This document shows, piece after piece, positions 1,336 through 44,975 of a stretch of 50,026 nucleotides of DNA (the stretch's first letter is position 1; the number at the start of each line of letters is the position of its first letter). This stretch comes from an uncultured Anaerolineales bacterium. Lineage in GTDB: Bacteria; Chloroflexota; Anaerolineae; UBA1429. The stretch spans positions 1-50,026 of the forward strand of contig CAYQDH010000002.1 of the NCBI GenBank assembly GCA_964416075.1, in the 5' to 3' direction. The translations under genes were made by a program, and so were the position numbers. The notes below the pieces were generated by a model that saw only the letters and a program-made list of their open reading frames with translations, ran no database searches and had not been told where the DNA came from.

Positions 1336-1480
1336 GTTCCTGCCTCCGGGACACGTCGCGCCCTCGAAAGCGCGCGAGGACGTTCGGGTTCGATGCATGC
1401 GCTGGAAACATGCTAGCACGGACTCCCCGGTACGTCTAGTGGCCCGGCGGCGCTGCCGATCTTTGGCCACCCTAACCAGG

Positions 1481-3607
1481 CTATTCCAGGTCGACTGCCA
1501 CCACTTCATGATCCAGGATCGTCGGCACCGTCACGGTCACATGACCCGGCTCCGCCTCGAACGGTACCACGCTGCCGGCCACGAGCAGTTGCGCCCGCGC
1601 GGCCCGCGCACCCTCAGGCAGGCGGATGCGCACCTGCTGCGTCCCCACCGGATATAGCTCGCGAAAGGGCCCCTTCATCATCATGGGATTCGTCAGGTTC
1701 ACCATGTGCACCGTGAGCGAGCTCTTTTGGCGCCACACCGTCACATCCAGCACACCCGGGCCGGTGACTGTCGCCGGGCGCTCCTCGTTCGTGGCCCAGC
1801 CCACGGCATTGCCCAGGATCCGGCCATGGTCCACGCAGAGCACCTCCCAGAAGATGCGGTCCGCATCCCATGGCAAATACACCACCCGTCCGCGGCCCAC
1901 CTCGCGCACGTAGGCCTCAGGGATGTCGGTCACCGGCTCTCGCGGGTATACCTCCTCCATCGGCAGGTCGGGATAGGAGGGAATCAGCGTCAAAGGCGCA
2001 TTGGGGAACGGTACCGTGCCCTTGACTCTGACGCGATAGGCGCCGTTGATGATGCGCTCCGTATCCTCCAGCCCTGCCAAAAGGGGATGGACCCCGTCCG
2101 TTTGCGGATCGCGTTCCACGCGCAGGTACGAGTTCTGCATGGGCCCTTCGATGCCCCCTTCGTACCGCACGCCATACAGGTCGCACAGGCCGAAATCGGG
2201 CCGGCGCACGCCCCACTCGTCATAGAGCGAGGTCTCGAAGGTGGCCACGAGGCTGCCGCCTCGCGCGACATAATCGCGCAGTTGCTCGCATTGGGCACCC
2301 GAGAGCGCCGCGATGTTGGGCAGGACCAGCGCCTTGTATCGATCGAGGTGTTCGGCGTCCAGCAGCCCATCATGTACCATCTCAAAGGGGATCCGCGCCT
2401 CCACCAGCGCCTGGTAATAGCCCAGGGTATGATCCTCGACCTTGGCCTGCGCCGACTCACCCCCATAATAGGTTGCCGTCTGCTGCGAATAGAGCATCGC
2501 CACGCGTGCGAGCGATTCCTCATTGCGCAGGTAGGGCTCTACCGCATGGTGCCAGCCATAAATATCCTCCACTACGCCGAGCCAGCGCCGGTCGTAGAGC
2601 ATGCCGCCGAACTTGGTGAACCACGGGCGCAGCCCGTTGGCGATTCCGTCGGCTACCCAGATGCGAATCTCGGCCGGGCTCTGCACCGAGTCCTTCCAGC
2701 GGTAATGCTCCTCTACTCCGACGCTAAAGATGCCCCCCGCTGGCTTGTTTCCGAGCGTCGCACGGTACTCTTTCGCGTTCTTGCCATTGGCCCAGGGGAC
2801 CATCAGCCCGCGGCGTGCCTGGCGGTCGGCAAAGAGGATGTCGGACAGTTCACCGATGGTCTTCATATCCAGCGAGCTTAGCGCGCCGCCGCCTGTATTG
2901 GGGATATAGCGCGCAGCGGGGTTGATCGCACGGATCTCCCTGTCCCACAGCTGCCAGAGCTCGAATAGACGCTCTTGGTGCCAGCGTAAGTAGGCGCGAT
3001 AGGCCGAGCCCTGCGGATCCCGCGTCCGGGGCAGGTCCATGCCGTAGGCCTCGCGGAAATTGCGCTGGCAGTGCTCGCAATAGCACATGCCGGAACCCGC
3101 CCAGCGATTGCTAAAGATCCCCTCCACTTGGTAGAGGCGCATGATCTCGCGATGGACCTCGGTCATGAACTCGAAATTGTACGGCCCCAGGGCGCAGGTC
3201 ACCCACAGCTCTGGCTGTGCCCAGTGGCGCCGCGGTTTCCCATCAGCGTCGACAGCGACCCAATCGGGATGGGCCTCGTACGCATCCTGATGCATGGCGT
3301 GCGGGTCGGTGCGAGCGATGACCACCATATCCATCTGCTTGCACCCCGCGACCAACTCGCCAAAGGGATCGGACTCGCCCATCCACTGGCTGCGGTAGTG
3401 CAGTGGAATCTGCGTCGGGTAGTAGCAGATGCACCCCCCCGCGCTCAGGCAGGCTGCGTCGGCATGCACTCGCTGAAAATAGTCCAGCCAAAAGGCAGGA
3501 TCGTACTGCGCGGGATCGTTCTCCACCAGCGTGAGCTGCGCCCAGCGCATGGGCCGGTCGAACCAACCGCCTTGCTCTTGCGATACCATACCCTTAGCCT
3601 CTGCCAT
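1481..3607 (-). CDS. Putative glycoside hydrolase (GHL6/GH42-like catalytic region plus beta-galactosidase-trimerisation-like C-terminal half)
   Basis: The track gives a 716-aa ORF (1481..3631). The likely start is ATG 3607, with GGAGG about 8 nt upstream. The TIM-barrel-like N-terminal pattern (RWAQLTLVENDP, IARTDPH, WVTCALGPYNFEFM, CYCEHCQ) recalls GHL6/GH42-type proteins. The family assignment is from memory only. Confidence 0.6.
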   Translation of the reverse strand: MAEAKGMVSQEQGGWFDRPMRWAQLTLVENDPAQYDPAFWLDYFQRVHADAACLSAGGCICYYPTQIPLHYRSQWMGESDPFGELVAGCKQMDMVVIARTDPHAMHQDAYEAHPDWVAVDADGKPRRHWAQPELWVTCALGPYNFEFMTEVHREIMRLYQVEGIFSNRWAGSGMCYCEHCQRNFREAYGMDLPRTRDPQGSAYRAYLRWHQERLFELWQLWDREIRAINPAARYIPNTGGGALSSLDMKTIGELSDILFADRQARRGLMVPWANGKNAKEYRATLGNKPAGGIFSVGVEEHYRWKDSVQSPAEIRIWVADGIANGLRPWFTKFGGMLYDRRWLGVVEDIYGWHHAVEPYLRNEESLARVAMLYSQQTATYYGGESAQAKVEDHTLGYYQALVEARIPFEMVHDGLLDAEHLDRYKALVLPNIAALSGAQCEQLRDYVARGGSLVATFETSLYDEWGVRRPDFGLCDLYGVRYEGGIEGPMQNSYLRVERDPQTDGVHPLLAGLEDTERIINGAYRVRVKGTVPFPNAPLTLIPSYPDLPMEEVYPREPVTDIPEAYVREVGRGRVVYLPWDADRIFWEVLCVDHGRILGNAVGWATNEERPATVTGPGVLDVTVWRQKSSLTVHMVNLTNPMMMKGPFRELYPVGTQQVRIRLPEGARAARAQLLVAGSVVPFEAEPGHVTVTVPTILDHEVVAVDLE

Positions 3608-6349: not shown

Positions 6350-7645
6350 TCATATAGAGATGGCCTGGGGCCACGGCTCGCGGCGGGCTTGGGTCCAAAG
6401 CGTGTTGACGTAACTCAGCGCAAAGTGGTTCTGCACCAAGTGAAGCCAGAAGGCGCCCCGCTCGGTCAGTGTGACATAGTCGCCATCGCGAACCGCGAGC
6501 CCCGCGAGCTCCACGGCTCTCAGCCACCGGTAGGCCTTCAGCGCGTCATGGCCGAGAACTGCATCGAGGCTGTCCAATGGGATGCGGGTATCGTAGAGGC
6601 GCCAATACAGCCACCACCAACCGGGCATCTCACCGGAGAAAGGCATGCGCAGGGCGATAGCCATTCGCCCGTCACACGTTGCGCGAATCCAGCTGTTGAG
6701 ATCAAAGGTGTTGAGCACGAACCCATCGGGCAGGTGCGATCCGGCGCCGGGGCCGATCCCGATGTAGCCATCCCGGGTAACCGACGAGTAGCGCGGAACG
6801 GCGCCGCGCCGGAAGCCCCACACCGATACGCGCTCGTAGCCATGCTCCGCGCACCATGCGTTGATGGCGCGGTAGTGCGCCCGACGCGCGCGCAGATCCG
6901 GCATGCGCACATCTGTAAGGCGCAGGTACTCGCCGACCGAGGTGTAGGGGAAGGTGAAAAGCGGGTAGGTCGTGATCTGCGTTGCGCCAAGCTGCGCGGC
7001 GCGGGCCAGATCCGCGGTCACCTCGCTGGCTGTCTGGCCGGGCAGGGCGAACATGAGGTCCACATTCACCGAGGCAAAGCCGCTCTCCGCCAATAGCCCT
7101 AGCGCGTGTTCCGCGACGGATGGTGTGTAGCGGCGTCCGATCAGTCCCAGGTTCTCGGCACGGAACGACTGCACGCCCAGGGATACGAGGGCAACACCCG
7201 CATCGTGCATCCGCCGCACGGTTACGTCGTCCACGTCAGCGGGGTTCGTTTCGATGCAGATATCCCCCGTCAAGGGGAACCGCTCGCGCACCCGTGCCAG
7301 CACGCTGGCGATGCTGCCCAGTGCAAGCGTCGGTGTGCCGCCGCCGATGTAGACGCTCGTTATTTCGGCAGGCCCGATCCTATCAGCCCACCCATCCACC
7401 TCGGCGACTGCGGCCCGGGTGTAGGGTTTCAATAGCGCTTCGTCATACGGTACCTTGGTGTAGGGGCAATAGGGGCACAAGTTGTGACAGAACGGCACAT
7501 GCAGATACAGCGAGGTACGCTCGACGCGCGGCGGCGCCCAGTCCGCTGCCGGCGCTTCAAACACCCAACGCTGATCGGGTCCCACGAGATGCCTGCGTGC
7601 CACGCGCGTTACGAGGCGGGAGAGCTTGTGGCCCAGCTGGTTCAC
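6350..7645 (-). CDS. HemN-like (coproporphyrinogen-III-oxidase family) radical SAM protein
   Basis: Cluster motif LHVPFCHNLCPYCPY (CxxxCxxC) with a HemN-like downstream region (YIGGGTPT). The likely start is GTG 7645, which forms a GTGA overlap with the upstream stop. The track ORF extends to 7735 and would overlap the upstream gene by 94 nt. Confidence 0.8.
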   Translation of the reverse strand: MNQLGHKLSRLVTRVARRHLVGPDQRWVFEAPAADWAPPRVERTSLYLHVPFCHNLCPYCPYTKVPYDEALLKPYTRAAVAEVDGWADRIGPAEITSVYIGGGTPTLALGSIASVLARVRERFPLTGDICIETNPADVDDVTVRRMHDAGVALVSLGVQSFRAENLGLIGRRYTPSVAEHALGLLAESGFASVNVDLMFALPGQTASEVTADLARAAQLGATQITTYPLFTFPYTSVGEYLRLTDVRMPDLRARRAHYRAINAWCAEHGYERVSVWGFRRGAVPRYSSVTRDGYIGIGPGAGSHLPDGFVLNTFDLNSWIRATCDGRMAIALRMPFSGEMPGWWWLYWRLYDTRIPLDSLDAVLGHDALKAYRWLRAVELAGLAVRDGDYVTLTERGAFWLHLVQNHFALSYVNTLWTQARREPWPQAISI

Positions 7646-8592
7646 CAGTACCTCATCATGCCCAGCATGGCGCTCAAGCGCAGGCGCTGAAACTCGGTGA
7701 TCTCCGTGCAGGCCGCATAGCCGCACTCTGCGCAAATATCGTCAGTGGCGCGGCAGCACACATACTCGCCATCGACGTCCCTTACATAGGCTACCGGCAT
7801 GCGCCTTGGCCAGTCACCGGACTTGAGCGCGAGTAGGCCGGCCCGCGAATTGATCACGGGCAGCCCTGACTTGATACAGCGCAGCAGCCCGTCGATGATC
7901 GGCGCGCGCTCCTCGGCGGTCAGGAATAGCTCGTCGCGACCATAGTAGGGTGTGTGCCAGTAGAACATCACACCGATTACGGGGAACTTGGTCTCACGCA
8001 CCCAGCGCAGGAATGGCTCGATGCCAGGCGCGGTGTTGCGGTCAATCACATAGATCACCGCGACCTTGGGGTGCTGGCCCCCACGGATCGCATTTTCGAC
8101 CTGCTGGAAATGATCCCCGCGTCGCAACTCGAAGGTGCCGGGCAGCCCATCCATGCTGACCCACACCAGGTCGGCCGACGTGTCGAGCCCGAGTGTGCCG
8201 TTGGTGTACAAGTGCACATGGTAGAAACCGATCCGTTTCGCCTCCCCAATGGCATCTTCCAGCCTGTGCTGGCCGTCGCGCCACAGCATCGGCTCCCCGC
8301 CGCTGAGGTACAACTCGCGGAATCCGCGGCCCCAGGCATCTTGCATGGCGGCAACCAAATGGTCCCAGGTCATATCGGGACGGCCAGTGTTGGAGACACG
8401 ACAGCCACGACAGGCCAGGTTGCAGCGGTCCGTAACTGCAACGCCATAGATGAGCGGCTCCGGACGCCCCAGCACGAAAAAGCGCCACGCATACGGGATG
8501 TAGAATCGGAGCCTATCGGCAGCACAAACCAAAAGGCTAACCTCCCTCAGAACGTCATAACTCGGCCATCCTGACGGGTCAAATGCTGGCAC
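7642..8592 (-). CDS. Radical SAM protein with C-terminal Cys-rich auxiliary region
   Basis: Motif VTDRCNLACRGCRV (CxxxCxxC), the GGEP SAM-binding motif (YLSGGEPML), and a C-terminal CCRATDDICAECGYAAC. GTG start at 8592. Confidence 0.8.
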   Translation of the reverse strand: MPAFDPSGWPSYDVLREVSLLVCAADRLRFYIPYAWRFFVLGRPEPLIYGVAVTDRCNLACRGCRVSNTGRPDMTWDHLVAAMQDAWGRGFRELYLSGGEPMLWRDGQHRLEDAIGEAKRIGFYHVHLYTNGTLGLDTSADLVWVSMDGLPGTFELRRGDHFQQVENAIRGGQHPKVAVIYVIDRNTAPGIEPFLRWVRETKFPVIGVMFYWHTPYYGRDELFLTAEERAPIIDGLLRCIKSGLPVINSRAGLLALKSGDWPRRMPVAYVRDVDGEYVCCRATDDICAECGYAACTEITEFQRLRLSAMLGMMRYW

Positions 8593-8803
8593 CTACCCGA
8601 ACGTCGCCTGGCCGATCATCGCGACGTCTGCCGCGGCGACGAGCCCGCACGCGAGGCACCATAGGCCCAGCGTTAGGCCGCGCCCTGCAATATTAAGCAG
8701 CTCCGGCGCGCGGTGCCCTCTACCCGTCCAATCTCAGACAGGCCCTAGTGTAGATCGAGTCACTCCCGACGTCAATGCCTTTGCAAGGCCAGCTATTTTC
8801 CGT

Positions 8804-8832
8804 TTGACAAACGCCTCTGCTCGTGCTAAGTT
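8804..8832 (+). promoter_or_regulatory. Sigma70-like promoter upstream of the AOR leader
   Basis: TTGACA (8804-8809), a 17-nt spacer, then TAAGTT (8827-8832). Confidence 0.4.
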
Positions 8833-8949
8833 GGCCACGTATACTCTGGACAGGCCTAGCCTCAAGGAGGACGTCCCGGCAACCACACCGCTCAAGCCAC
8901 GCTAAGGCCTTTGGGTGCGCGCCTGCCCTCGCACCCCATAAAATAGGTC

Positions 8950-9036
8950 AAACCTCCGACTCATCACGCTCCCTCGAGGACGAATGAGCGTTAGGTGCGG
9001 GGAGCAATCCCCACGCCCGCCGTTAGCAAAGGAGGT
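8950..9036 (+). promoter_or_regulatory. Candidate Moco/Tuco (molybdenum/tungsten cofactor) riboswitch aptamer
   Basis: 5' CCUCCGA (8953-8959) pairs with 3' AAAGGAGG (9028-9035) as P1. An internal helix is CUCAU (8960-8964) with AUGAG (8984-8988). A hairpin is GGUGCGGGG (8994-9002) with CCCCACGCC (9009-9017). CCUCCGA...AAAGGAG matches my recollection of the Moco-motif consensus. It lies directly upstream of a W/Mo-pterin enzyme gene. Confidence 0.5.
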
Positions 9037-9082
9037 GGCCTCGTTGTGCCGATTCTGGCGCACGAAGGTCACCTCCTTTTTT
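9029..9082 (+). terminator. Intrinsic terminator / expression platform of the AOR leader
   Basis: AAGGAGGUGGCC (9029-9040) pairs with GGUCACCUCCUU (9067-9078) and runs into a U6 tract (9077-9082), whose first two U form the base of the stem, then AUUU. The 5' arm reuses the GGAGG that closes the putative aptamer P1. Confidence 0.6.
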
Positions 9083-9118
9083 ATTTCGGAAATCGGTAGT
9101 CTGTACAGAGGAGGAAAC

Positions 9119-10972
9119 ATGCAAGGCTATACTGGGAAAATGTTGGTCGTCGATCTGGGGCTGAGAACATTCGAGTCGCGGGCCATCCCAGAAGCATGGC
9201 TCAAGGATTTCCTGGGTGGTGAGGGAGTGGCGATGCGCCTCTTCTACGAACTGGTGCACCCCGACGCCGATCCCTTGGACGCCGTTCAGCCGATGATCTT
9301 TGCTACCGGGCCGCTCACGGGGACGGCAGCGCCATGCAGCGGGCGCTGCTGCGTCGTCTTTTACTCCCCCGCGACCGGCACACTCGGCGCGGCCAATGCT
9401 GGTGGGCACTTTGCCCCAGCGCTCAAGAGGGCAGGTTGGGACCTCTTGGTCCTACTCGGCCAAGCCGATAAGCCCGTCTACCTGTATGTTAACGATGATA
9501 AGGTAGAGTTCCGTGACGCAGCGCGGCTGTGGGGCCAGGGGGTGGCCGAAGCCGAAGATGCCATCGTGGCGGAGCTGGACGTAAAGGGGCTGCAGGTGGC
9601 TTCTATCGGCCCGGCCGGTGAAAAGGGCGTCAAGTTCGCCTCCATCATGACCGACAAACACCGTGCCTTTGGACGCGGTGGACCCGGCGCAGCGATGGGC
9701 AGCAAGCTGCTGAAGGCGGTCGCTGTCAAGGGCACGTTGCCCCTGCCGACTGCGGATCCTAAGGCGCTCCGTGAAGCGGCGACCCATGCCCGTGAAGAGC
9801 TCTTTGCCGAGGCCTTTGTCCGCGATGAGTTGCACCCCTTTGGCACCCCTTCCTTCTACGATTCTATCAACACCCTCGGTATCCTGCCTACCAAGAATTG
9901 GCAAAGGACCGAGTTCCCCCAATCGGTCGGTAAGTTGACCTACCACGACTACCACGAGACGCTACAGGTCAAGCCCTATGCCTGCTTTGGCTGCCCTATC
10001 GCCTGCGGGCGGTCCACCACCATTATCGAGGGCAAGTATGCGGGAATGCATGGGGGTGGGCCGGAGTATGAGACCTTGGCCGCTTTTGGCAGCAAGTGCC
10101 TGGTCACCGACATCAACGCTATAGCTGCTGCCAACCACACGGCAAACAACCTGGGGCTGGACGTAATCTCTTCGGGACAGGTGATTGCCACTGCTATGGA
10201 GTGGTACGAACAGGGGATCTTGACCAAGGACCTCACCGGCGGCCTGGAGCTCACTTGGGGCAACGGAGACGCCGTGGTCGAAGCCGTCAAGCTGATCGGC
10301 AAGCGCGAAGGAGTCGGCGATCTACTGGCGCTGGGCGTCAAGAGGGCCGCGGAGAAACTGGGGCCCGCTGCCGGCTATGCGGCCATGCATGTCAAAGGGC
10401 TGGAAATGGCGGCCGATGGGGTGCGGGCCAGTAAGGGCGAAGCCGTCGTGCACGCCACTTCGGCCCGCGGCGCCGACCACTTGCGGCCCTACGCCTCCAC
10501 CATCGATGCCTTTGGCTATCGTGAACCCCAATTGGGCATCGTCCAAGACGTCGACTACCTGGAGGATGGCCACAAGTCGTGGGTCAAGCCGCTCCAGGAA
10601 CTGAGCATGGCTACCAACATGTTGGGCGTGTGCCTCTTTGCCTCGATCACCCTGGCCATCAAGCCCGCCACCTGGGCCCGGTTGGCCTCGGCGGCCGTCG
10701 GCTATCCCATCTCCCAGGGCGATCTGCTCCTCGCCGCCGAGCGGGTGATCAATCTGGAGCGCATGGTCAACGCGCGCCTTGGATTTGATCGCAAGGATGA
10801 CACCTTGCCCCGGCGCTTCCTGGAGGAACGGGCTCCCGACGGGCGCGGCGAGGGCGAGGTCGTCGACCTGGCAGTAGCACTGGATAGCTACTATGAGTCC
10901 ATGGGTTGGGACCCAAAGACTGGACTCCCCACACGTGAGAAGTTGGCCAGCCTGGGCCTGGATTGGCTCTAG
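9119..10972 (+). CDS. aor: Aldehyde:ferredoxin oxidoreductase family (tungsto-/molybdopterin enzyme)
   Basis: MQGYTGKMLVVDLGLRTFESRAIP...FLGGEGVAMRL is a typical AOR N-terminal domain. It has a 4Fe-4S motif ACFGCPIACGR and long AOR domains 2/3. ATG 9119 is preceded by GAGGAGG. The track ORF starts at 8984, inside the leader. Confidence 0.9.
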   Translation: MQGYTGKMLVVDLGLRTFESRAIPEAWLKDFLGGEGVAMRLFYELVHPDADPLDAVQPMIFATGPLTGTAAPCSGRCCVVFYSPATGTLGAANAGGHFAPALKRAGWDLLVLLGQADKPVYLYVNDDKVEFRDAARLWGQGVAEAEDAIVAELDVKGLQVASIGPAGEKGVKFASIMTDKHRAFGRGGPGAAMGSKLLKAVAVKGTLPLPTADPKALREAATHAREELFAEAFVRDELHPFGTPSFYDSINTLGILPTKNWQRTEFPQSVGKLTYHDYHETLQVKPYACFGCPIACGRSTTIIEGKYAGMHGGGPEYETLAAFGSKCLVTDINAIAAANHTANNLGLDVISSGQVIATAMEWYEQGILTKDLTGGLELTWGNGDAVVEAVKLIGKREGVGDLLALGVKRAAEKLGPAAGYAAMHVKGLEMAADGVRASKGEAVVHATSARGADHLRPYASTIDAFGYREPQLGIVQDVDYLEDGHKSWVKPLQELSMATNMLGVCLFASITLAIKPATWARLASAAVGYPISQGDLLLAAERVINLERMVNARLGFDRKDDTLPRRFLEERAPDGRGEGEVVDLAVALDSYYESMGWDPKTGLPTREKLASLGLDWL

Positions 10973-12590: not shown

Positions 12591-15500
12591 ATGATACCGG
12601 AGCATGGCTCTCTTTCCCCTAGGACCGATCGGCATGCCGGGACGCAGGGAGGGGAAGCGGAGGCACTCCGTCGGGAGCGTGACCTGCTCTCGGCCGTGCT
12701 CGACACCGCTGGTTCGCTCGTGGTGCTCCTCGACCGCGAGGGTCGTATCGTCCGCTTCAACCGTGCCTGCGAGACGACGAGTGGATTCTCCTTCGCAGAA
12801 GCAAGAGGCCAGGCTCTCTGGGATCTATTCCTTGCCCCGGAAGAGGTCGATCCGGTCCGGGCGGTCTTTGAGCAGCTTCGAGCGGGCCAATTCCCCAACG
12901 AATACGAAAACCACTGGATAACTAAGGATGGGCAGCGCCGTCTGATCGCCTGGTCCAACACGGCCCTCCTGAGCCCCGACGGAGCGGTCGAATACATCGT
13001 TGGCACGGGCATCGACATCACCGACCGCCGGCAGGCTGAGGAGTTGCTACGCCAAGCCCGTGAAGCGCTTGAATCTCGCGTGGCTGAGCGGACCGCTGAA
13101 TTGCAGAGAGCGAGCGAGTTACTCGCCGCCCTGCACGAGACCGCCCTGGGTATACTAGGCCGCCTCGACCTGAACGAGTTACTGGAGGCTATCGTCACGC
13201 GCACGGCGAACCAGGTGGGGGGCTATGCGGCGATCTACCTGGTGGATCGTGCCACCGACGAACTCGTCGTCCGGGTCGTCAGCGGCGCCCCCAGCGATTT
13301 TGTCGGTTATCGGCTGAAGCGGGGCGAGGGCATGTGCGGCAAGATATGGCAGTTCGACCGGCCCATGCAGGTAGACCGCTACAACACATGGGACGGCCGC
13401 ACGGCCGTCTACCCCTACTCAAACCCCGACCCGCGGGTCGACCGGTCGATGGGGGTGCCGTTGCATTCCGGCCAAGAGGTCGTGGGGGTGCTGGGGATAT
13501 CACGGTCGAATACATCGCCGCCTTTTCGGCAGGATGAGCTAGATCTCGCCATCCGGCTGGCGCAATTGGCCTCCATCTCCCTGGACAACGCACGGCTATA
13601 TAGCTCGCTCCAACAGGGTTTTGCCCTGCAAAAGCTCGTCGGCCATATCTCTGCTCACTTTATCGACCTCGGCCCTTCGGAGGTCGACGCTGGCATCCAA
13701 TATGCGCTCCAGGCCATTGGCGAGTTCTCGGGCGTGGATCGCAGCTATGTGTTCCAGTTCTCGGGCGATGGCACGATCCTGGACAATACGCACGAGTGGT
13801 GCGCCGAAGGGATCCAACCGTACATAGATTCCCTCAGGGGCCTTTCCCGGGCGGCTTTTCCATGGTTCGTGGGCCAGCTGGAGCAGTTAAAAGTAGTGTC
13901 CGTGCCTCGCGTGGGCGATATGCCCCCGGAAGCGAGCATGGAGCGCGCGGAATGCGAGCGGGAGGCTATCCAGTCCATCATCCTCGTGCCCCTGGCGTAC
14001 CGTGGTATGCTGGTTGGATTCCTGGGCCTCGATTCCGTGCGGGTGGAGAAGCCCTGGACAGAAGACCTCACGACTCTGCTCACCATCGTCGGCGGCCTGA
14101 TCGTCAATGCCCTCGAGCACAAACGAGCGCAGGCCATCCAGGCCGGCCAGCGTCAGTTCTTGGAGCTGCTGGCCACCGGTGGGAGTTTTTCCGAGACGCT
14201 TCATACTCTGGTGCGCCTCATCGAAGATCAATGGCCGGGCATGCTCGGGCTCATCCTGCTCCTGGATGAGGATGGCAAGCACCTGCACATCGGCGCTTCG
14301 GTGAGCCTGCCGCAAGACTATGTCCGGTCCATCGAAGGGCTGGAGATCGGGCCCATGGTGGGGTCGTGTGGCACGGCCTGCTACCGCCGCGAGCGGGTGA
14401 TTGTGGAAGACACGGCCACCGACCCGCGCTGGGAAGGCCTGCGCGACCTGGCGCTCCGCTATAGCCTGCGCGCCTGCTGGTCGGAGCCGGTATTCTCCCC
14501 CAGCGGCCAGGTGGTGGGCACCTTTGCCATGTATTACCGCCAGCCCCGTGCGCCAAGCGAGACGGAGTTGCGCACCATCGAGATGGGTGCTCACCTGGTG
14601 GGGGTAGCTATTGAGCATGATCGGGCTGAGAGGGCACTGCGACAAAGTGAGGAAAGGTTCCGCAGTATCGTCGAACATGCCAATGTCGGAATAGCTATCG
14701 TTCAAGAGGCCCGCTTCCGGTTCATGAATCCTCACTACGCCGCCATGCTGGGCTACACCGTGGAGGAGATGCTCGGCACAGAGTTCATGGGGTACTGTAC
14801 GCCGGAAGAACGCGATCGCATCGTGGACTTTGATACGCGGCGGACCAGGGGCGAGCCCGTTCCCACGCGCTATGAGACATCCCTGGTGCACAAGAATGGT
14901 GGGTACGTCTATGCGGACGTGAGTGCCGGCCTTATTCCCTACGGCGGCCAAAAGGCCACCTTCGTCTTCCTGCGCGATATCACCGAGGAGCGGCGCACCC
15001 AGCAGGCCCTCCAGGAGGCCTACCGGACCTTGGAACTGCGCGTGGAGGAGCGCACGGGGGAATTGGCCGCGCTCAATGCGATTTCCGCTGTGGTCAGCCG
15101 CTCCCTCGATCTCCAAGAGATCATGAGCAGCGCCTTGGACAAGACTCTGGACGTCATGGGTCTCAGCGTGGGCGCGGTCTACCGCCTACAGGCAGAGCAT
15201 GGAGAACAGCCACCCAAGCCGCTGCTGCGCCTCATGGCGCAGCGGGGCTTGACCGAGGAGTTGGCGCGTCTTGTCGATCCCCTGCCGCTCTACGGGACCT
15301 TTGTCGAGAGCGCTGCCGTCCTTCAGCGGCCGGTCGTCTGGATGGTGGCCGACTATCCACAGGCGACCCTGATGCAGTACATGGAGAGGGTTGGCGTGCA
15401 CACAGCAGTCAGCGCGCCGCTCCTATCCAAAGAGACGATGGTGGGCGCGATGGTCGTGGGGTCCCCCAGCCAGCGCCTCTTCAGCGCGGAAGAGCTGTCG

Positions 15501-42754: not shown

Positions 42755-43306
42755 TCATCGTTTCTCGGCGAGGTAGGCAAAGAAGCCTGCCCGCCTCAAA
42801 GCTTGCAGCGTCAGCGCCCCCAGCACCCCGCCGAGAGCGCCGAAAACGATGTACCCGATCAACGCTTTGAGCAGCCCCAGCGCCACAAACCCCACCGGCG
42901 CGCCCGTGATGCTCGCCATACCCCATTTGACCAAGAACTTGGCCATGTGGCCCAAGGTCGCCGCCAGCCCCGCCACGACCAGGCTCTCCGGACGACCCAG
43001 CAGCCATAGGGCCAGGTCAGTGCCCACGCCTACCGCTGTATAGGACAGCAGTGTGTTTAGCGCGCCGAAATCGCCCAATCCCATAAAGGCCGCCATGATG
43101 CCGGAGCTTAGGCCCACCAGGCTGGCCGCGCCGCGCTTGGGGACGATCCCCGCGCCCACGATGATGATCGCCATCCAAAAGATGCCGGAATGACCCGACA
43201 GCTGCAGCGGCAGCCGCAACGTGATCTTGGCTACCACGACCAGCGCGGCGAACAGCGCTAGCAAGACAAGCTCAAAGGTGGAGAAATATCGCTCCTTCAT
43301 GGCCAT
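42755..43306 (-). CDS. ECF-transporter substrate-specific (S) component-like membrane protein
   Basis: About 183 aa from MAMKERYFSTFELVLLALFAALVV, with 5-6 TM segments. It is last in the gene string with EcfT and the fused EcfA. The start shares one nt with the upstream stop. Confidence 0.6.
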   Translation of the reverse strand: MAMKERYFSTFELVLLALFAALVVVAKITLRLPLQLSGHSGIFWMAIIIVGAGIVPKRGAASLVGLSSGIMAAFMGLGDFGALNTLLSYTAVGVGTDLALWLLGRPESLVVAGLAATLGHMAKFLVKWGMASITGAPVGFVALGLLKALIGYIVFGALGGVLGALTLQALRRAGFFAYLAEKR

Positions 43307-43809
43307 CACTCCGATTCTGGTGGGGTGTTGATTTCGATAGCATCCACGTCCTGCACCCACTCGTCGCGGATGTCCAACTGGGGCAAGAGCGAGACCAGCT
43401 TGAGCGTGCCGCGCCCCGATAGATCGAACAACACCATGTTCGCAGGGTCATCGACCTCGGCCCAGGTCAGGTCCGCAATCTTGCTGCTGCTGCCGCTGGA
43501 TACATGCACCCGCGTCGTGGGCCCGAGGGCATTGCGCTCGATGTGCCGCAAGATCACATCTCGCAGCATCCAGCCCTGCTGCGTCTTGCCCTCCTCCGCG
43601 TCCACAAACTGGGCTTCTTCCAGGTTGGCTAGATCGTCGGGCGTAAAGCCCCCTACGAGGCGACCATCCATGCGGATAGGGATGCTCCCCGGCGCCAGCT
43701 CCGGCTCCGGGCCGAGCCGCGAACGCTGCCAGGCATCTACGCCGAGGACCAGGGCCACCAGCGCCACGAGGATGCCTAGCCCGATGAGAATCCGTGTTCC
43801 TTGTGTCAT
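43306..43809 (-). CDS. Membrane-anchored extracytoplasmic protein, unknown function
   Basis: N-terminal anchor ILIGLGILVALVALVLGV, then a soluble domain of about 130 aa. It lies between the EcfT and S-component genes. Confidence 0.5.
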   Translation of the reverse strand: MTQGTRILIGLGILVALVALVLGVDAWQRSRLGPEPELAPGSIPIRMDGRLVGGFTPDDLANLEEAQFVDAEEGKTQQGWMLRDVILRHIERNALGPTTRVHVSSGSSSKIADLTWAEVDDPANMVLFDLSGRGTLKLVSLLPQLDIRDEWVQDVDAIEINTPPESE

Positions 43810-43830: not shown

Positions 43831-44517
43831 TTAGCGCCAGATTAACAGCGCCACCATAGAGGCCGCCGATCCGGCCAGCAGCCAGCTGTCGAACGATGTC
43901 CAGATGAGGCGGCGGTAGGGCCGCCGATGCGGCGAGTCAAAGCCTCGGGTATAGGCGGCCTCCGTCAAGGCCCAGGCGCGCTTGGTCGTAAGGGTGATAG
44001 CGGGCACTGCCAGGGCCACCATATCGCGCAAGCGGCCCCCCAGGTTCCGCCAGCCAGAGGATGGCGCCCAGGCCCCGCGCGCCTGCTGCGCTTCCAGGAT
44101 GGCGCGCCACTCCTCGCCTAATAACCCGAGGCTCTGAAAGGCTAAACCCAAGCTAAAGGCGTAGCGGTACGGAAGACGCATCCATTCCAGCGCCAGGCGT
44201 AACTCGCCCGGCGTGGTGCTGGCGAAGAACAGGGAGAACGCCCCGGCCAGCAGCACCAGCCGCAGGGTGATCACGATGGCCAGATCCAGGCTGACCACCA
44301 CCCAATCCACCACAAAAAGGACCAGCAAGATCCACTTGAGCCTCCAGGCCTGTCGTGCCGCTTCCGGCAACAGCCGTGCCCAGAGCAACAAGCCGATATA
44401 TAGTGCCATGAAGACAGCCAGTCGCTCTAGCGGTAGCATCACCGCCAGGGATGCACATAGGCTCAGCGCCAACTTGGTGCGCGGGTCGGCGCGGCGCAGA
44501 GGCGAGTCCTCCACCAT
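43831..44517 (-). CDS. ecfT: ECF transporter transmembrane (T) component (EcfT/CbiQ family)
   Basis: From MVEDSPLRRADPRTKLALSL, with the conserved ARG motif (EAQQARGAW). The track ORF (to 44901) runs through an intrinsic terminator and so is over-extended. GAGGG lies 8 nt before ATG 44517. Confidence 0.75.
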   Translation of the reverse strand: MVEDSPLRRADPRTKLALSLCASLAVMLPLERLAVFMALYIGLLLWARLLPEAARQAWRLKWILLVLFVVDWVVVSLDLAIVITLRLVLLAGAFSLFFASTTPGELRLALEWMRLPYRYAFSLGLAFQSLGLLGEEWRAILEAQQARGAWAPSSGWRNLGGRLRDMVALAVPAITLTTKRAWALTEAAYTRGFDSPHRRPYRRLIWTSFDSWLLAGSAASMVALLIWR

Positions 44518-44748
44518 CGCCAGCCCTCGCACGCCCAGGCCAGTTCGTCTTCGCTGGGGCTTCGCACTCACCGACTTGCCTCGTTTCAGGATTGTGATCT
44601 GCTCCTTGCCCAGCGAAAACACCGACCGAGCGCGTCGCTTCGGCCGCTCGCTATGCATGGCTTGGCACAAAGGCGCTACGACAGGGTCAGCGCTGGCCTC
44701 TCCGCAATAGCGTGAGGGCAACGATGGCCACTGGCCGAGTACTGAAGC

Positions 44749-44788
44749 AAAAAAACGGCGTTTCCCCATCCATACGCGGGGAAACGCC
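44749..44788 (-). terminator. Strong intrinsic terminator inside the Mop-EcfT spacer
   Basis: Minus-strand RNA reads GGCGUUUCCCC, loop GCGUAUGGAU, GGGGAAACGCC, G, UUUUUUU: an 11-bp perfect stem and U7. Confidence 0.8.
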
Positions 44789-44975
44789 GACTGATTCGCC
44801 GCCGTTACCGTTCTCCTTTCCAAGGATGGGGGGCGTGACTGTTTCCGGCCACACCTTCTTGACGGTCCACAAGACCGCCAGCGATCACAGGCCCTAGCCA
44901 TCGCTGGACATCGTCACACCAACGAGCGCGTTAGGCTATGTGATTCGGAGAACAAGATATCCTGTTGTGAACGAA
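44789..44975 (-). promoter_or_regulatory. Riboswitch-like leader (multi-helix element plus antiterminator) upstream of ecfT
   Basis: On the minus strand GGUGUGAC (44920-44913) pairs with GUCACGCC (44839-44832). That helix encloses the CCAGCGAU/AUCGCUGG hairpin (44907-44900 with 44885-44878) and GACGAUGUCC/GGACCGUC. CCCCAUCC (44831-44824) is complementary to GGAUGGGG (44771-44764) in the terminator. I recognise no known riboswitch class. Confidence 0.45.

Follow-up and report, generated by a model that had tools for sequence, protein, structure and literature searches.

A compact Moco/Tuco-type riboswitch with a predicted ON-type terminator platform in the leader of an aldehyde:ferredoxin oxidoreductase gene of an uncultured Anaerolineales bacterium

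Can a gene for a cofactor-requiring enzyme be switched on by the cofactor itself? The question is raised by the leader of an aldehyde:ferredoxin oxidoreductase (AOR) gene in an uncultured Anaerolineales bacterium (GenBank assembly GCA_964416075.1, contig CAYQDH010000002.1, positions 1 to 50,026; this whole stretch of 50,026 nt is referred to here as the window). A first-pass annotation of the window had proposed that this leader holds an aptamer of the molybdenum cofactor/tungsten cofactor (Moco/Tuco) type, and that its closing helix, P1, takes up one arm of a transcription terminator. Almost all riboswitches that sense coenzymes act by turning off genes for biosynthesis or uptake. If one instead turned on the gene of an enzyme that needs the coenzyme, it would follow a different logic, in which no apo-protein is made without the cofactor. 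Our analysis makes it likely that the AOR leader carries a compact Moco/Tuco riboswitch, most likely acting as a kinetic transcriptional ON switch. The ligand identity, its binding and the in vivo direction of regulation are parts of this reading that we infer.

Family membership and fold of the leader element

The first-pass annotation had staked the family assignment on a score above the gathering threshold of the Rfam model of the Moco RNA motif (RF01055). That score was not reached, which speaks against the assignment: the gathering scan of the whole window gave no match at the locus, and RF01055 (gathering score 36 bits) found nothing in 8800–9200 even at E ≤ 10 with lax filters. A permissive Rfam scan of 8800–9200 returned a mir-1255 match to the terminator hairpin (E = 2), which was discarded as meaningless. 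The threshold is too strict for the compact sub-lineage concerned, because among 20 sampled compact members (loci L031–L060), all clear relatives, only 7 reached the gathering score, 2 narrowly missed it and 11 went unseen at E ≤ 1. Compact members with the P5 loop GCCAGUGYGC failed RF01055 consistently. The same genome contains 12 RF01055 RNAs above threshold, several of which lack the P3 helix and score 63–72 bits, so the failure cannot be put down to the absence of P3.

A DNA search of 60 related genomes identified six homologues in other Anaerolineae families, covering exactly 8953–9035 with 75–81% identity. RF01055 accepts two of them, at 48.7 and 40.0 bits, and gives 33.1 bits to a third; the homologues fall on both sides of the threshold, and the element therefore belongs to a sub-lineage straddling the Rfam cut-off. 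The 3′ half of the element shares 82% identity with an RF01055 match in the same genome (contig C491); when this genome was searched for other copies, only the locus itself and this partial match, covering the 3′ half of the C491 Moco RNA, came up. A covariance model, R2, made from 101 aligned relatives (86 distinct) with the window excluded, placed the window copy at 8948–9040 with 75.0 bits (E = 1.7e-19), within the range of the other members (43–106 bits), and all positions conserved in at least 95% of the family are retained. R2 also picked up a canonical Moco RNA at 44.8 kb, with 32.6 bits. The Moco/Tuco-like aptamer of the first-pass annotation is thus upheld by the identity to RF01055-passing relatives, by the window-free model and by the conserved positions. 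The two segments said to close it, CCUCCGA (from 8953) and GGAGG (to 9035), lie where they had been placed and form a helix that is paired in 98.6% of cases across the family. Judged from these comparisons, 8953–9035 is a genuine, divergent, compact representative of a riboswitch class already known, and its gene context is also of a known kind. The parts of the locus are as follows.

8953–9035 (+): aptamer, compact Moco/Tuco-type, with helices P1, P2, P4 and P5 (model R2, homologues, covariation)
8953–8957 (+): P1 5′ strand CCUCC, within the conserved CCUCCGA at 8953–8959 (letters read directly)
8960–8988 (+): P2, short and without receptor; CUCAU 8960–8964 with AUGAG 8984–8988, inner UCC 8970–8972 with GGA 8978–8980 (R2 alignment)
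8989–8993 (+): junction J2/4, CGUUA; the family consensus is CGAUA plus one further base
8994–9017 (+): P4, a 10-bp stem with a GCAA tetraloop at 9004–9007 and one C-A mismatch (covariation)
9019–9027 (+): P5 mini-helix, G9019–C9027 and C9020–G9026 (consensus fold, R2 alignment)
9026–9035 (+): GCAAAGGAGG, in which AAA is 9028–9030 and GGAGG is 9031–9035
9028–9035 (+): shared (switching) strand AAAGGAGG; junction AAA, P1 3′ strand GGAGG and terminator 5′ base
9028–9079 (+): intrinsic terminator hairpin, 52 nt, −36.6 kcal/mol (strict terminator search and folding)
9077–9082 (+): U6 tract of the terminator, abutted by the hairpin (letters)
9110–9121 (+): ribosome-binding site (RBS) GGAGGA 9110–9115 and start codon ATG 9119–9121 (sequence, orthologue N-termini)
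9119–10972 (+): AOR-family gene, full-length aldehyde:ferredoxin oxidoreductase, 617 aa (Pfam AFOR_N 4e-76, AFOR_C 2e-124)

The element is a multi-helix structure of about 83 nt, closed by CCUCCGA at 8953–8959 and AAAGGAGG at 9028–9035, with A8952–U9036 as a possible sixth P1 pair. The consensus fold (RNAalifold) comprises P1 (CCUCC/GGAGG), P2 as a short two-part hairpin, a 10-bp P4 with a GCAA loop and P5 as a 2-bp mini-helix. The outer pair of P1 covaries, and the helix is closed in the minimum free energy (MFE) structure of the aptamer-only transcript (−37.3 kcal/mol). Compensatory changes were found in all 7 outer P2 pairs and in 7 of the 10 pairs of P4, in which 97.9% of cells are paired. 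P3 is absent, only 5 nt (CGUUA) lying between P2 and P4, and the tetraloop receptor in a P2 bulge (CCUAAG ... UAUGG) is missing from this copy, whose P2 is a short hairpin. The compact sub-lineage likewise does without P3 and the receptor and has the GCAA loop. Over the 86 distinct sequences as a whole, 95.6% of cells are paired (43–57% with the partners slid) and 18 of 28 pairs show compensatory changes, a value reached by none of 500 shuffles; the alignment was fitted to the model, so these counts lean toward structure, and the independent RNAalifold result agrees with them. The 186-nt leader folds at −79 kcal/mol (z = −5.6), a stability equalled by none of 200 shuffles.

An initial model based on seven sequences retrieved about 90 compact copies (92–97 nt, 63–106 bits) in 401 Anaerolineae genomes. 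In a pattern scan of named genomes, the compact form occurred mainly in Anaerolineae and other Chloroflexota, with scattered copies in Bacillota, Syntrophaceae, Actinomycetota, Armatimonadota and Coprothermobacterota. Two cultured strains, Caloramator quimbayensis USBA 833 and Sinanaerobacter chloroacetimidivorans BAD-6, are among its carriers. On these sequence counts, the compact aptamer is a known minority form that is abundant here. The Rfam model misses about two thirds of the sub-lineage, and AOR regulation is thus under-annotated in Chloroflexota and other anaerobes. An aptamer of 83 nt without a long-range tetraloop contact would also be an attractive minimal construct for binding and structural studies.

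A terminator overlapping P1

The first-pass annotation had the GGAGG of P1 begin the 5′ arm of a terminator hairpin at 9029–9078, the first two U of the U6 tract being stem bases. The overlap stands, and the boundaries shift slightly: the hairpin is 9028–9079 and three U lie in the stem. The 5′ arm is AAAGGAGGUGGCCUCGUUGUGCC, from 9028, and the 3′ arm is GGCGCACGAAGGUCACCUCCUUU, to 9079; the first three U of the tract are able to pair with A9028–A9030. The segment CCUCC at 9072–9076 is the strand competing with 8953–8957 for GGAGG. The upper part of the hairpin (9036–9071) is compatible with P1 and ends 5 nt from the U tract. The upstream gene at 7642–8592 encodes a radical SAM protein on the opposite strand, so there is no preceding gene that the hairpin would terminate. 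Folding of the full leader gave −64.9 kcal/mol for the terminator fold and −56.6 kcal/mol with P1 enforced, a gap of 8.3 kcal/mol. Because both need the shared strand 9028–9035, P1 and the terminator exclude each other; the terminator is the more stable, and P1 comes first in the nascent aptamer. We saw no route in this layout by which a ligand-stabilised P1 would promote termination.

This overlap is a general feature of the compact sub-lineage. With a strict search, which takes the strongest hairpin abutting a U-run, a clear terminator was found in 76 of 87 compact members, and its 5′ boundary fell inside AAAGGAGG in 72 of these 76; in the window it falls at position 0 of AAAGGAGG. A simpler metric gave 73 of 87 members against 24 of 261 shuffled tails. 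The metric tried first, GGAGG pairing just before any U-run, was dropped as a contrast, since anti-terminator pairings of the OFF type in canonical Moco RNAs are flagged by it as well. The same genome has 12 canonical RF01055 RNAs, and in 10 of them the terminator starts 20–94 nt past P1; the genes behind these RNAs are moaA, transporter genes and members of the xanthine-dehydrogenase family, and an OFF-type anti-terminator is visible in some of the RNAs. The downstream hairpins of the compact members vary widely in sequence and length, yet they keep the P1 overlap. Three-way covariation was also observed: of 13 cases with GGAGA as the shared strand, 12 have UCUCC as the P1 5′ strand and all 13 have the matching U in the terminator arm, although many of these cases are probably related and represent few independent events. 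The overlap frequency and this covariation support, at the comparative level, the earlier proposal that P1 sequesters the terminator arm in an ON-type platform.

Regulation by this leader could proceed as follows. The nascent aptamer would fold with P1 closed (CCUCC 8953–8957 with GGAGG 9031–9035), and binding of a pterin cofactor would keep it closed; the tungsten form is the most likely ligand, because the gene encodes an AOR and P3 is absent. With P1 held, CCUCC 9072–9076 could not displace it, and only the 9036–9071 hairpin, 5 nt off the U tract, would form, allowing read-through into AOR. Without ligand, the thermodynamically favoured full hairpin 9028–9079 would form against U6 and terminate transcription. 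The apo-enzyme would thus be made only when its cofactor is available.

Some AOR loci are preceded by tandem compact aptamers, which are spaced by about 160 nt and each have an ON-type terminator of their own. Such pairs lie at L034 1342–1424 and 1506–1588 (the same as L098 690–783 and 854–947, where a third copy is found at 7181–7288) and in G046, contig C155, at 8109–8202 and 8262–8355, with a further copy at 14538–14645. Tandem ON switches would sharpen the response, both aptamers needing occupancy.

Other Moco RNAs were seen in the window and in its genome. The RNA at 44.8 kb is a canonical RF01055 riboswitch (44797–44962, minus strand, 50.2 bits) with a separate OFF-type terminator at 44757–44788 and a U-run at 44749–44755, upstream of CbiQ/ECF-type transporter genes (43831–44730 and 42755–43360). 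Contig C601 carries divergent, back-to-back Moco RNAs at 1037–1168 (−) and 1363–1505 (+); one, which lacks P3, is of the OFF type, has a clear anti-terminator and precedes a xanthine-dehydrogenase-family gene, and the other precedes a gene for a TPR protein. If a P3-less RNA represses the gene of a molybdo-enzyme, this would agree with the idea of a tungsten cofactor repressing a molybdenum isoenzyme. Contig C461 has a tandem pair (206–348 and 528–646) before the gene for a molybdopterin-dehydrogenase FAD subunit.

AOR linkage, P3 and rival explanations

The gene after the leader is an AOR gene with its RBS and ATG (9119) downstream of the hairpin, as the first-pass annotation had it. The start at 9119 and the N-terminus agree with the orthologues in an alignment, and the AFOR_N match runs from residue 6. 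The AOR frame continues without a stop back to an ATG at 8984, within the aptamer's P2 (8984–10972, +), and gene callers may annotate from it a 662-aa protein swallowing the riboswitch; the true start is 9119, given the orthologue alignment and the RBS. No sigma-70-like promoter was found by a promoter scan of the plus strand of 8500–9300; by eye, a weak candidate is TTGACA (8804–8809) followed after 17 nt by TAAGTT. Just 5′ of the aptamer lies a 7-bp G+C-rich hairpin (GGGUGCG ... CGCACCC, 8907–8935, +), which has no U-run after it and is not kept in the homologues.

An AOR gene lies downstream in 6 of 6 of the first homologues. Among the 86 distinct members, 74 are followed by an AOR-family gene within 1.5 kb, 5 are not and 7 have too little sequence to judge, which amounts to 74 of 79 testable members (94%), with a median distance of about 150 nt. 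The exceptions comprise a DUF362 gene followed by AOR; an inserted HicA-like gene; in L123, an Actinomycetes metagenome-assembled genome (MAG), a Tat-signal formate dehydrogenase interrupted by a TGA in frame, probably for selenocysteine; in L089, an Armatimonadota MAG, a CooS/Prismane-family gene; and, in L077, an open reading frame (ORF) without a Pfam match. At some loci a small ORF stands between aptamer and AOR, and the one in L045 resembles MoaD by eye but has no Pfam match.

The usual AOR partners of the aptamer are only 27–42% identical to the AOR of the window, and the leaders of the closest homologues of this AOR are unrelated to its own. Conservation at the level of orthologues was rejected; it exists for the RNA family and for AORs as a superfamily, but not within this orthogroup. 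The RNA is more conserved than its AOR cargo, and the aptamer-terminator unit seems to act as a portable cassette. The genome contains at least 20 AOR-family loci (22 contigs with tblastn matches; it is a MAG with 8.5% contamination), and the compact riboswitch was found only at the AOR of the window. In L182–L185, which represent one genus with orthologous AORs, the leader of about 190 nt contains GAGGGGAGGTGATGCACCACAGGA, and a conserved block, TATAATTGTGAT(4 nt)TGCACTATCGTTTCTC, lies about 200 nt upstream of the start. No Moco-like motif is present in these leaders, which therefore represent a different control region for the same enzyme.

Several observations weigh against a working, tungsten-responsive ON switch at this locus. 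The element is absent from 29 of the 29 closest homologues of this AOR, including five orthologues with 76–78% identity; a few compact members, such as that of L138, have no recognisable terminator; and the window copy is somewhat eroded. In the family register, 2 of its 7 outer and 1 of its 4 inner P2 pairs are mismatched, RNAfold favours another P2 register (ACGCUC/GAGCGU) that uses the conserved junction GCG, J2/4 is 1 nt shorter than in relatives, and the P5 loop has 5 nt instead of 7–8 (2 nt shorter). The three mismatches, the competing register, the shortened J2/4 and P5 loop, the orthologous AOR genes that manage without the element and its standing as the sole compact copy beside at least 20 AOR-family loci could together indicate a decaying relic, the aptamer no longer binding ligand and the hairpin being a constitutive partial attenuator of AOR. 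We regard this as very improbable, since every position conserved in at least 95% of the family is intact, the score is typical of members, P1, P4, P5 and the terminator overlap are preserved, and a constitutive terminator of −36.6 kcal/mol with U6 before an intact 617-aa gene would be costly without anti-termination. The net effect might also depart from a simple ON response. Whichever fold prevails, one CCUCC strand is spare, 9072–9076 if P1 is held and 8953–8957 if the terminator hairpin re-forms, and it may pair with the Shine-Dalgarno GGAGG at 9110–9114, damping or separately gating translation, so that the net protein output of the ON switch is not certain. CCUCCU 9072–9077 is complementary to AGGAGG 9109–9114, and the MFE structure of 8940–9125 pairs CCUCCGACU (8953–8961) with AGUC 9098–9101 and GGAGG 9110–9114. 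This long-range pairing is missing from the centroid structure, however, the region between terminator and RBS is not conserved in the alignment, and such complementarity is unavoidable when P1 uses a Shine-Dalgarno-like GGAGG and need not be selected; we think this complication improbable.

The presence of P3 in siblings bears on the ligand. P3-bearing versions with the same platform also stand before AOR genes, which weakens the rule that P3-less RNAs denote tungsten. They are found at L062 2061–2168, L069 1067–1175, L075 1195–1303 and L081 2548–2655, and in L090, L097, L102 and L128; in every case an ON-type terminator (AAAGGAGGCAAUCC...GGAUUGCCUCUUUUUU) comes next, and then an AOR-family gene. 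P3 is therefore no simple marker of molybdenum versus tungsten here. The genome of the window has a copy of this kind in C491 (41–189, minus strand; locus L012), a Moco RNA of 40.8 bits with a compact P2, a P3 hairpin and a GAGA loop; its ON-type terminator is GGAGGCG ... CGCCUCUUGUUAUUU, and the regulated gene lies past the contig end. These RNAs would suit an alternative in which the same RNA and switching respond to Moco, metal-free molybdopterin or another pterin intermediate and report general pterin-cofactor supply. In favour of it are the P3-bearing variants of 106–109 nt, with compact P2, GCAA loop and ON-type terminator, before AOR genes in at least 8 Chloroflexota genomes, the C491 copy, and the compact members that precede a selenocysteine-containing formate dehydrogenase or a CooS-like gene. 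AOR-family enzymes, on the other hand, are almost all tungsten enzymes, and an AOR gene follows 94% of the testable compact members. Direct ligand binding has been shown for no Moco or Tuco RNA, and the Moco/Tuco ligand specificity has never been measured directly, but the P3-less RNAs are near-perfectly correlated with tungsten-cofactor metabolism (Regulski 2008, PMC2408646). A ligand other than the tungsten cofactor is thus, in our view, unlikely.

Returning to the tungsten-responsive ON switch, we see an even chance that the AOR-linked compact aptamers form a distinct functional variant, in which a receptor-less aptamer of about 83 nt and a terminator sharing the P1 3′ strand would make up a portable unit for cofactor-licensed transcription, with or without P3. 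If true, the occurrence of P3-bearing and P3-less forms on one gene family would overturn the rule that P3 means Moco and its absence Tuco. Siblings with and without P3 that share one platform and one gene family would also provide a natural test of discrimination between tungsten and molybdenum cofactors.

Comparison with known systems

The element shares with the Moco RNA motif (RF01055) the series CUCCGA, P4 with a GNRA loop, the CC.GCC mini-helix and the AAAGGAG that closes P1. Its further traits also have precedents in the motif, in which four RNAs have GCAA loops, all without a receptor, 58 of 176 are P3-less "Tuco-type" RNAs linked to tungsten-cofactor genes, and genes for pterin-cofactor enzymes adjoin (Regulski 2008, PMC2408646). 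The present copy differs in escaping RF01055, in its P2 cut to a short hairpin, and in its host, Chloroflexota not being listed among the 2008 Moco taxa (PMC2408646). Regulski 2008 (PMC2408646) discusses repression only, and the tested E. coli moaA RNA turns a biosynthesis operon off at the translational level; in the AOR leader, by contrast, P1 competes with a terminator, which predicts an ON response, on the gene of an enzyme that uses the cofactor.

The Tuco riboswitches of Eubacterium limosum, which are associated with WOR1, tupABC, fetABC1/2 and focA (PMC11725836), are RF01055 RNAs that lack P3, as the present element does; one lies before the AOR-family WOR1 operon, and some have terminator-type platforms. 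Control of WOR1 was proposed to be translational, through an RBS sequestor, and the two terminator-type operons rose under tungsten limitation, an OFF response; the P1/terminator overlap that predicts ON is not described there (PMC11725836). A survey of tandem riboswitches gives Moco and Wco (tungsten cofactor) arrangements without the direction of regulation.

A literature search of papers available without subscription turned up no account of an ON-type switch in the Moco/Tuco class. What is new, on comparative sequence evidence, is the conserved ON-type platform, the size of the sub-lineage together with its poor Rfam coverage, and the breakdown of the P3 rule at AOR genes. The closest parallel is one of mechanism only. 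Mandal and Breaker reportedly described, in 2004 (cited in PMC9481103), that the pbuE (ydhL) adenine riboswitch activates its gene by disrupting a terminator. As in pbuE, the P1 3′ strand of the AOR leader is the terminator 5′ strand, a ligand-held P1 would block termination, and control would be kinetic, the terminator being the more stable structure; the aptamer and the ligand are unrelated.

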